Shown here in pieces: positions 22,803 through 24,450 of a DNA stretch of 64,000 nucleotides. Source of the DNA: a virus (Duplodnaviria; Caudoviricetes). Position 1 is the stretch's first letter. Every line of letters begins with the position of its first letter. The stretch spans positions 32,001 through 96,000 of IMG/VR virus record IMGVR_UViG_3300018475_000104, one strand, 5' to 3'. The notes beneath the pieces are model-generated. The model was not told where the DNA came from, made no database searches, and saw only the letters and a list, made by a program, of their open reading frames with translations. Position numbers and translations under genes: made by a program.

Positions 22803-23402
22803 ATGAAATTTACCGATATTGTTTCAAATGTAAAAATTTATGATTTAGAAGAATCAATTATCGCAAGTGGCTATCCTATGAGAACTAAAGCTGGTAGGCG
22901 AGAAGTTGAGGAGAAAGATATTAATCGGGGCGAAAAGTTAGTTAGGGCTACCCTTGGCGGTAATACCGCACATCATTAGTTCTTAACAGGTATTAGGGTA
23001 AACTTTGATTTAACTTTTACAAATAAGGCGTGGGTTGAAGCCGAAAGATATAGATTCTTAGAATTTGTTTCAAGCCAATCAACAATGCACAGAATTACTA
23101 AATTCAATTTAGATAATCAGTATATTAAATATGTTGACCCACGAGTTATTAAAATTATGCAAGAGTTGGTTGATGCATACAACGAAAATCCAACTCCAGA
23201 AAATTACTTAAAGGTTCTTTATACAAATCCCGCAGGTTTTAAAATTACTGCGCGCATGACTACAAACTATAGAAGTTTAAGAAATATTTATATTCAAAGA
23301 AAGAATCATAGATTACCTGAATGGCGCGCGTTTTGTAAATGGATTGAAACCTTACCTTTTGCAAAAGAGTTTTTAACTAATATTAATCAAGAAGAGGAAT
23401 AA
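22803..23402 (+). CDS. thyX: flavin-dependent thymidylate synthase-like protein, one in-frame TAG (22977)
   Basis: From ATG 22803: ...AHH*FLTGI...AERYRF...SQSTMHRI...TNYRSL...RKNHRLPEW; in frame with track ORF 23085-23402. Confidence 0.75.
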
Positions 23403-23415
23403 TTCCTCTTTTTAT
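23392..23415 (+). terminator. terminator-like hairpin with the thyX stop codon in its loop, immediately 5' of the tRNA
   Basis: AAGAGGAA-TAA-TTCCTCTT followed by TTTAT. Confidence 0.5.
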
Positions 23416-23449
23416 AGCCGTGTAGTTTAATGGTAAAACGCCGGTCTCT

Positions 23450-24138
23450 AATTAAAAATTGGACACCAAGAAGGGAAACCGCTTGTGTGAATCGTGTCAA
23501 ATTCGGTAAAACTCTTTAGGAGAATACAATGGCAACAAAAATTTCACTTTTAAGTGACGAAGAATTTTAGAAAATAATTTATGAATCTTATTCCTATGCT
23601 GAATGTTGTAGAAAGATTGGATATAGTGATAAAGGAAGTCATGGCACAGATGCGATAAAGAAAAGATGTCAAGAACTTAACTTGTCTACTAGTCATTTTT
23701 CTAAGACCAAGGCAGCAAATAAAAGTAGCACAAAATATTCTTTAGATGATATATTGATTGAAAATTCTAATTATAAAAACATATCAAGATTAAAAACTCG
23801 ACTAATCAATGAAAACAAACTTGAATATAAATGTGCTATATGTGGTAATACTGGAGAATGGAATAATAATCCCCTAGTTCTTCAATTAGACCATATTAAT
23901 GGAAAACACAACGACCATCGTTTAGAAAATCTAAGATTCTTATGTCCTAACTGTCATTCTCAAACAGAAACATATTCTGGAAAAAATAAAAATAAAGACA
24001 ATACCGAGCTAAATCAGTAAAAAACTGTAAATGTGTAGAGACTAAACGGCACGAACCTAAACCCAATTTGGGCATGGTTAAGATATAGTCCAGACTACAA
24101 CACAAATAATTGTGGCCATGGTGACATGGAGTAGTATG
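23450..24138 (+). ncRNA. group I self-splicing intron in the tRNA anticodon (689 nt)
   Basis: P1 with U.G at the splice site (TCT|AATT-aaa-AATT-GGA); P3 CGTGTC 23493/GGCACG 24048; P4 TTCGGTA 23502/TACCGAG 24002; P7 GACTA 24040/TAGTC 24086 within GTAGAGACTA and AAGATATAGTCC; GNRA-capped P2 and P9; terminal G 24138. Confidence 0.92.
23529..24020 (+). CDS. intron-encoded HNH homing endonuclease, in-frame TAG at codon 14 (23568)
   Basis: TAGGAG SD, MATKISLLSDEEF*KIIYES... in frame with CAICG...LQLDHINGKHNDHRLENLRFLCPNCH. Confidence 0.87.
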
Positions 24139-24225
24139 AAAACCGTAATATCCTTCTGACGGAGGTTATCTGGGTTCGAATCCCAGCACGGCCGCCAATC
24201 AAATATTTTACTGGAGGACAGTCCA

Positions 24226-24450
24226 ATGAGAGATGGTTTTGATGCCTCTAGTTTTCTAATACCCAAAGCATTCCATGATTTACCACTTTTTGGTGGAGGA
24301 GAAGGAAATGACGTTGGGTGGATGTTACTAGATCTTGCAACCTACTATAATGAACTTTTAGACAAATACTTACAAACTAATGATGACAGATATTTAAAAG
24401 TTTTAAATGCAATACTACCAAATCTAAGGAGAGAATTAGAAGATGAGTGA
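24226..24450 (+). CDS. hypothetical protein
   Basis: GGAGG SD, overlaps dut start. Confidence 0.6.
   Translation: MRDGFDASSFLIPKAFHDLPLFGGGEGNDVGWMLLDLATYYNELLDKYLQTNDDRYLKVLNAILPNLRRELEDE

Follow-up and report, generated by a model that had tools for sequence, protein, structure and literature searches.

A putative amber-decoding tRNA gene of a gut phage, interrupted within its anticodon by a predicted self-splicing group I intron

The DNA analysed here is a window of 64,000 nucleotides (nt), bases 32001-96000 of one 109,534-bp phage contig (IMG/VR record IMGVR_UViG_3300018475_000104). On its + strand lies a tRNA gene with a CUA anticodon, tRNA(CUA), divided into two exons by an insertion of 689 nt. 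Exon 1 (23416..23449) provides the 5′ strand of the acceptor stem, the D arm, the 5′ strand of the anticodon stem and residues C32 U33 C34 U35, and its 3′ end reads ...CCGGTCTCT or, given at greater length, ...GCCGGTCTCT. Exon 2 (24139..24197, + strand) starts with AAAACCGT and supplies A36 A37 A38, the 3′ strand of the anticodon stem, a 23-nt variable arm, the T arm, the 3′ strand of the acceptor stem, G73 and CCA, ending in ...GGCCGCCA (GCCA). When the exons are joined in silico, ARAGORN recognizes a 93-nt tRNA(cta) with the loop CU-CUA-AA (C32-U33-C34-U35-A36-A37-A38), a long variable arm containing a 5-bp stem, G73 and an encoded CCA. The spliced molecule thus has the features of an amber suppressor: a cloverleaf, a 7-nt anticodon loop, U33, the CUA triplet and a purine at position 37.

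A homologue of this tRNA is uninterrupted in phage phAss-1. Its tRNA-Sup-CTA gene (L022:1467-1554) contains the contiguous sequence GCCGGTCTCTAAAACCGT, and an 18-nt region around the junction is the same in the two molecules. The phAss-1 gene also shares the long variable arm, T arm, G73 and CCA, with 83% identity to exon 2, while the differences in the acceptor and D stems are compensatory. Exon 1 aligns both with this gene and with the spliced tRNAs of two further phage contigs, L014 and L176, and the stems covary across all three. The position of the junction is fixed by two independent lines of evidence, the unsplit phAss-1 homologue and the covariation of exon and intron guide sequence described below. 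The exon coordinates given in a preliminary description of this DNA hold throughout.

That description had also expected standard tRNA scans to overlook the gene. Indeed, ARAGORN with default settings reported 0 tRNAs over the 64-kb window, as did an Rfam scan of the window at gathering thresholds. With introns allowed, ARAGORN detected the locus with the intron shifted by two nucleotides and called it His-atg; this placement (intron after position 32) was discarded as it provides no U.G/omega-G pair fitting P1, and it also conflicts with the unsplit homologue.

The split arrangement is not confined to a single assembly. Gut-metagenome contigs of 2022 and 2024, 3-8% diverged from the window, span both exon-intron junctions and, as they come from other gut samples, indicate that the arrangement persists elsewhere. 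An exact 26-mer from exon 2 had 0 matches in IMG/VR, and the syntenic loci reached through the dUTPase gene (L001 and L002; 52% identity) carry no tRNA at the corresponding position. Immediately 5′ of tRNA position 1, window positions 23390-23415 form a hairpin of 7-10 bp (AGAGGAA-UAA-UUCCUCU) followed by a T run; the hairpin loop coincides with the stop codon of the preceding gene. The element resembles an intrinsic terminator, and a consensus scan did not list it; if it acts as one, tRNA(CUA) would require read-through or a promoter of its own. A promoter scan gave a site count no higher than that of shuffled sequence, and a clear tRNA promoter was not found. The joint 23449>24139 is absent from the contigs of four sequencing runs (one of RNA), although contigs cannot inform on splicing. 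One contig from the RNA library covers exon 1 and the intron up to 24104 and may represent unspliced RNA or DNA. Another joint in the RNA run, 23514>24072 (with a 29-nt side), was considered as a splicing product and rejected; it probably derives from an intron lacking an open reading frame (ORF) in another phage.

The insertion (23450..24138, + strand) separates position 35 of the anticodon from position 36 and is a group I intron whose splicing activity is predicted from its sequence. All the elements previously described (P1 with its U.G pair, P3, P4, P7, P9 and a terminal G) are present, as are P2, P5a, P6 and P8, all on the + strand. P1 (23447..23463) has 7 bp and an AAA loop: exon residues UCU (23447-23449) and the intron sequence AAUU pair with AAUU-GGA, where GGA (23461-23463) is the guide and U23449.G23461 the wobble pair at the 5′ splice site. 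P2 (23464..23489) is a hairpin with a GAAA tetraloop (23475-23478) and shows compensatory changes at 9/9 pairs within the family of related introns. The 5′ strand of P3 (CGUGUC, 23493..23498) pairs with GGCACG (3′ strand, 24048..24053); in the family 5/5 of these pairs covary and 100% are paired. The 5′ strand of P4/P5 (UUCGGUA, 23502..23508) has its partner, UACCGAG (24002-24008), on the other side of an ORF insertion. A putative P5a-like hairpin (23513..23521) was read from the sequence; its 3′ strand would partly overlap AGGAG (23518-23522), the ribosome-binding site that serves the intron ORF. P6 is a CAG/CUG hairpin (24015..24027). The 5′ strand of P7 (GACUA, 24040..24044) pairs with UAGUC (24086-24090) and forms a pseudoknot with P3; this helix is replaced by GAGCA/UGCUC in family member L012 and by GACUU/AAGUC in L007. 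P8 (24054..24079) is defined by alignment to the Rfam model RF00028 and by family covariation. It is followed by J8/7 (AAGAUA) and the 3′ strand of P7 (UAGUC), which together (24080..24090) form the most conserved group I signature, align to RF00028 and are invariant across the family. P9 (ACUAC/GUAGU, 24094..24135), also supported by family covariation, encloses P9a and P9b with a GUGA tetraloop at 24121-24124, and the intron ends in the terminal (omega) G at 24138, a G in all family members seen. By layout alone the intron is IC3-like, with GAAA in L2, GUGA in L9b and P8 directly after P3′.

The fold is supported by comparison with relatives. A group I structure including P2, P3, P4/P5, P5a, P7 (as a pseudoknot), P8, P9, P9a and P9b was written on a structural alignment of ten ORF-less family members (198-359 nt), from which the window intron was excluded. 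Across the 50 annotated pairs, 95.2% of cells are paired, compared to 29-37% with slid partners, and 29 of the 50 show compensatory changes, a number equalled by none of 500 shuffles (0/500). The window sequence fits every helix of this structure, and an nhmmer profile of the ten relatives matches the window intron in its two halves, with E values of 2e-29 and 3e-9. Exon and guide also change together. The five CUA-borne introns with exon 1 on the contig (the window, L014, L003, L176 and L206) combine exon UCU| with guide GGA, the Leu(UAA) cases combine exon CUU| with guide GAG, and both types have U.G at position -1.

The ORF of 163 codons inserted in the P5 region (23529..24020, + strand) encodes an HNH homing endonuclease, and its 3′ end overlaps P5′/P4′/P6. 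It matches Pfam PF01844 with 26.5 bits (cut-off 21.4) and PHROG 10822 with an E value of 1e-52 over residues 5-159, and includes an HNH motif with zinc-binding Cys pairs (CAICG ... DHING ... CPNCH). When the whole locus was compared to GenBank phages with blastn, the HNH gene alone was matched. The ORF contains an in-frame TAG at 23568-23570 (codon 14), within the part matched by the PHROG, so that the endonuclease would depend on the very tRNA that its intron interrupts.

The phage itself, of ~110 kb and from the animal gut, belongs to a Firmicute-type lineage. Geobacillus virus E3 (41%) and Enterococcus phage H1 are the nearest terminase relatives among cultured phages, phAss-1 being 36% identical, and the sequencing runs in which the locus was detected are animal faecal and gut metagenomes. 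Read-through of TAG opens a block on the - strand (26459-64000) into long ORFs, and the longest ORF of the genome, otherwise 1361 aa, reaches 2747 aa when TAG is read through and is unchanged with TGA or TAA. Late genes, named by their PHROG matches, had been proposed to need a UAG decoder, and their in-frame TAGs bear this out: in the - strand block, there are 3 in the terminase large subunit (TerL), 1 in the portal, 44 in the tape measure (2737 aa), 19 in the minor tail protein and 3 in Dit; on the + strand, the RuvC resolvase has 4. In total, ~110 in-frame TAGs of the window lie in - strand virion genes compared to ~10 in + strand genes. Some + strand genes, including the one immediately upstream of the split tRNA, contain TAG. 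An unsplit scan of the 109.5-kb contig found no second CUA tRNA.

A clearer view of such dependence is provided by G002, the contig that carries L014, a genome of 179,585 bp rated 100% complete by CheckV. It is also TAG-recoded, its longest ORF increasing from 1332 to 4974 aa with TAG read-through. None of its 22 unsplit tRNAs has a CUA, UUA or UCA anticodon, and the split gene is hence the sole amber decoder there. This supports the suggestion that other recoded phages may hide their suppressor in the same way.

The intron belongs to a family which, judged from its 3′ signature, appears to be essentially phage-borne. A search of IMG/VR with the intron 3′ end retrieved 17 phage contigs and a related core pattern three, while the 3′ signature occurred in 185,579 prokaryote genomes on only 1 contig, which is small, carries a tRNA array and is phage-like. 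In a pattern scan of metagenomes, 76 of the 80 loci examined, among 84 matches listed, were chance matches. Most family members lie after U34 of tRNA-Leu(UAA), in the window genome and in ~15 other phage contigs, and one lies in Arg(UCU). At least five other phage contigs have the intron after U35 of a CUA tRNA. Two of these, L014 (= L140, 297-nt intron) and L176 (224-nt intron), share the tRNA body of the window gene; L003 (359-nt intron) and L206 (an intron bearing an HNH ORF with two in-frame TAGs) have a class I tRNA body; L161 is a fragment with the last 64 nt of the intron and exon 2 only. Unsplit versions of tRNA(CUA) are ~25 times commoner in IMG/VR: 71 unsplit tRNA(cta) genes, 46 of them long-armed, carry the same anticodon arm, compared to 2 split genes with that arm (L014 and the window phage), L003 being split with another arm.

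The window phage and G002 each have a second copy of the intron in their Leu(UAA) gene. In the window phage, a sister group I intron of 714 nt interrupts this tRNA-Leu(UAA) gene (genome 3367-4166, - strand) after U34; it has an HNH ORF of its own, free of in-frame TAG. This intron belongs to another subfamily, with an extra hairpin in the P1 loop and a different HNH N-terminus, and its nearest relative is L012. In a tree of 167 core columns, the copy in the tRNA-Leu gene of the same phage is not the sister of the window intron, which clusters instead with L016, L007 and L008 (support 100/99), all three in UAA tRNAs. Monophyly of the CUA-borne introns is rejected (AU p 0.0026), and conservatively so, since the guide-sequence columns were included and would favour monophyly. 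The tree topology suggests that the family has moved at least three times between UAA-anticodon and CUA tRNAs.

Several particular loci of the family or its targets were observed in passing. L007:1845-2120 and L008 are family introns in UAA-anticodon tRNAs with a short variable arm, odd for a Leu decoder. In phAss-1 (L022:1296-1554), an unsplit tRNA-Leu(UAA) lies beside two unsplit tRNA-Sup-CTA genes upstream of nrdD, and both target tRNA types of the family are thus neighbours there. A 135.8-kb viral contig that carries an intron-split tRNA-Leu(UAA) also includes, within its tRNA array, a tmRNA (L004:987-1411; ARAGORN).

Taken together, we consider it very probable that the tRNA gene at this locus works as an amber decoder and that the group I intron interrupting it is mobile, a selfish passenger with no dedicated timing role. 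The precursor would be part of the transcript of the + strand nucleotide-metabolism block. Folding of the intron would then place exon UCU against guide GGA in P1, with U.G as the wobble pair, and bring the P3-P9 core together over the ORF, after which the intron would excise itself by the guanosine-initiated two-step reaction to leave the 93-nt tRNA with the predicted ligated junction ...GGUCUCU|AAAACCGU. The mature tRNA would read UAG at the ~110 TAGs of the virion genes and the ~10 of the + strand genes. The family itself would be based mainly in phage tRNA-Leu(UAA) and would have entered CUA tRNAs repeatedly, its guide being re-tuned each time. The data fit a mobile element hopping between similar anticodon loops (YU|AAAA) rather than a dedicated timer.

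A number of observations weigh against this reading. First, ARAGORN shows an A1.C72 mismatch in the acceptor stem of the spliced tRNA, an objection softened by the fact that the 1:72 pair is as a rule weak (A-U, U-A) among its homologues. Second, the Rfam group I model, the proposed check on 23450-24138, aligns to the hallmark core at J6/7-P7-P3′ (AGACUAAACGGCA) and J8/7-P7′ (AAGAUAUAGUCC), but with a score of 22.1 bits (E 0.0033), below the gathering score of 50. The seed of RF00028 is without bacterial sequences, and the ORF insertion divides the match; Williams 2020 (bioRxiv 10.1101/2020.01.27.920355) accepted tRNA introns from 18-20 bits. Finally, the contig has no terminal repeat and starts within a tRNA-Phe gene in a tRNA array, and the cluster of 8 members with exactly the same TerL includes a contig of 122.6 kb, so that the sequence past the contig end may hold further tRNAs. 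IMG/VR gave 0 matches to a 30-mer taken from the contig start. The earlier statement that the decoder exists only after splicing therefore stands for the 109.5 kb of the contig, which contain no other CUA tRNA, and is unproven for the window genome as a whole, the tRNA-array end of which the contig does not cover completely.

The identity of the inserted residue is a separate question. The three TAG columns of TerL, compared in 120 relatives (76-100% identity), contain Q25/K44/E42, Q115/L4/K1 and Q120, respectively; W, S and Y are absent, L occurs only 4 times, and two columns are 96-100% Q. UAG is, to judge from these columns, most likely read as Gln. The body of the spliced tRNA resembles bacterial tRNA-Trp in its D arm and in its anticodon arm (CCGGU-CUCUAAA-ACCGU). 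The Su7 suppressor of E. coli is a tRNA-Trp body with a CUA anticodon, and this U35, together with G73 and a weak 1:72 pair, leads to glutaminylation, a recipe which the spliced tRNA matches. The authors of the phAss-1 study also assign Gln to tRNA-Sup-CTA (PMC10607447). The TerL evidence is partly circular, the protein collection rendering TAG as Q in recoded contigs, and the three TAGs of two HNH ORFs align to K, Y and Q in a homologue. An active, spliced tRNA(CUA) that inserts another residue, either Trp, as the body would suggest, or Ser, Leu or Tyr, as the long variable arm, a class II feature, would suggest, could accommodate these alignments, and 19.4% of the phage suppressors associated with theta ribozymes were typed as Trp by tRNAscan-SE (PMC10879173). 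With the TerL columns, the Su7-type determinants and the phAss-1 assignment all pointing elsewhere, we regard this as unlikely.

The preliminary description had proposed that splicing times a switch to the late code: slow or conditional splicing would delay mature tRNA(CUA) and with it the TAG-rich late genes. Bacterial tRNA introns are regarded as splicing constitutively, which counts against such gating, while a ligand-controlled group I intron is exemplified by the c-di-GMP riboswitch-ribozyme tandem of Clostridioides difficile. The available 109.5-kb sequence does lack a decoder independent of splicing, the great majority of the TAGs fall in the late genes of the - strand, and the in-frame TAG of the intron endonuclease, like those of the L206 enzyme, would couple nuclease production to splicing. 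The location of the family argues otherwise, since a code switch is not at stake in tRNA-Leu(UAA), where most members reside, or in Arg(UCU), and the repeated moves inferred from the tree also speak against gating. Most phages that have this tRNA(CUA), including TAG-recoded phAss-1, have it unsplit. Even with E values of up to 10 allowed, no riboswitch, sensor or other Rfam family was detected within 23350-24260 or next to it, and TAG already occurs in + strand genes, among them the one just upstream of the tRNA. The proposal of timing is thus not sustained, and a ribozyme-gated switch appears quite improbable, even if theta ribozymes beside suppressor tRNAs have already been proposed to act as one (PMC10879173). 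A feed-forward variant would need no ligand: splicing across the 490-nt ORF would be rate-limiting, mature tRNA(CUA) would accumulate at the folding rate of the ribozyme, and the TAG-containing endonuclease would be made only after its own intron had been spliced, late translation and homing both being licensed by one ribozyme step. We hold this to be just as improbable.

That the split gene is a dead relic, with UAG decoded by another suppressor beyond the contig end, has in its favour the contig start inside a tRNA array, the three tRNA-Sup-CTA genes of phAss-1 (PMC10607447) and the A1.C72 mismatch, and is very improbable given that both exons retain the full cloverleaf and CCA, that the guide is tuned to the exon and the ribozyme core is intact, that diverged gut contigs bridge both junctions and that G002, a complete genome, has no CUA tRNA besides its split one.

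The tRNA array at the start of the contig has other unusual components, all on the - strand. Directly downstream of the split tRNA-Leu lies a skipping-rope RNA (RF02924; genome 3290-3359; 60.4 bits, E 3.8e-12). A third split tRNA (genome 571-1135), found by ARAGORN -i, has a 487-nt insertion nearly filled by an ORF of ~140 codons resembling a PD-(D/E)XK endonuclease, which leaves too little space for a group I core; a terminal G is also missing. At genome 61-98, 38 nt resembling a tRNA 5′ half (AGCTCAGTAGGATAGAGCAACGGCCTT) abut the next tRNA and end like exon 1 of the split Arg(UCU) gene of L021. This stretch may be the remnant of a split or rearranged tRNA.

A literature search of incomplete coverage found no description of a group I intron within a suppressor tRNA. 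TAG-recoded phages without a detectable suppressor tRNA have been reported in several surveys (PMC7886860, PMC10607447, PMC12386605). The present locus and its relatives provide one concrete cause of such "missing" suppressors, a decoder split in its anticodon by an intron for which tRNA finders in bacterial mode have no model. A whole variant of the genetic code would in some phages rest on one ribozyme reaction, whether or not this has a timing role, a dependence that can be tested at the bench. The exchange between Leu(UAA) and Sup(CUA) genes with re-tuning of the guide would also make the family naturally suited to work on the acquisition of new target sites by group I introns.

The closest known system is the intron of tRNA-Leu(UAA), an IC3 intron which Williams 2020 (bioRxiv 10.1101/2020.01.27.920355), describing 21 bacterial tRNA intron types, places in the class "Leu.3Ug" (CUU/a...g/AAAA; see also Hausner 2014, PMC3984707). 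The bacterial and plastid tRNA-Leu(UAA) introns resemble the window intron in their compact P1-P9 core, in their site in the anticodon loop, in U.G at position -1 and in the terminal G. In contrast to the classical Leu intron, the window intron is displaced by one nucleotide in the 3′ direction, to follow U35 ("position 4" in the numbering of Williams 2020), interrupts a stop-reading tRNA, is phage-borne and has the guide GGA rather than GAG. All phage group I introns known to Hausner 2014 (PMC3984707) were in protein-coding genes; with the present family, a lineage carried by phages is hence added to the tRNA introns. The tRNA-Sup-CTA of phAss-1 (OQ749652.1; PMC10607447) is homologous and comes from a TAG-recoded Firmicute-type phage with a TerL 36% identical to that of the window phage, but is uninterrupted, was found by tRNAscan-SE and is present as three genes, whereas the window gene is split.

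Introns in the tRNAs of code-15 phages were described in Lak megaphages by Devoto 2019 (PMC6784885), who stated that phage tRNA introns were previously unreported. Like the window intron they interrupt tRNAs of a recoded phage, but they were called "enigmatic" and left without a class, the named cases (Tyr-GTA and Thr-TGT) are not suppressors, and a homing endonuclease was not reported. The theta (HDV-like) ribozymes of Kienbeck 2024 (PMC10879173), located at the 3′ ends of suppressor tRNAs in a study which does not mention introns, also couple a ribozyme to suppressor tRNA maturation in recoded gut phages. They are small self-cleaving elements that cut the 3′ trailer, whereas the window ribozyme has to remove itself from within the anticodon and join the two exons. 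Finally, the intron of Agate phages (Borges 2021, bioRxiv 10.1101/2021.08.26.457843) likewise encodes an endonuclease with a recoded in-frame stop, which should delay the enzyme until the suppressor is active. The Agate intron lies in a protein-coding early gene and its recoded stop is TGA, whereas the endonuclease of the window intron needs the tRNA that its own intron interrupts.

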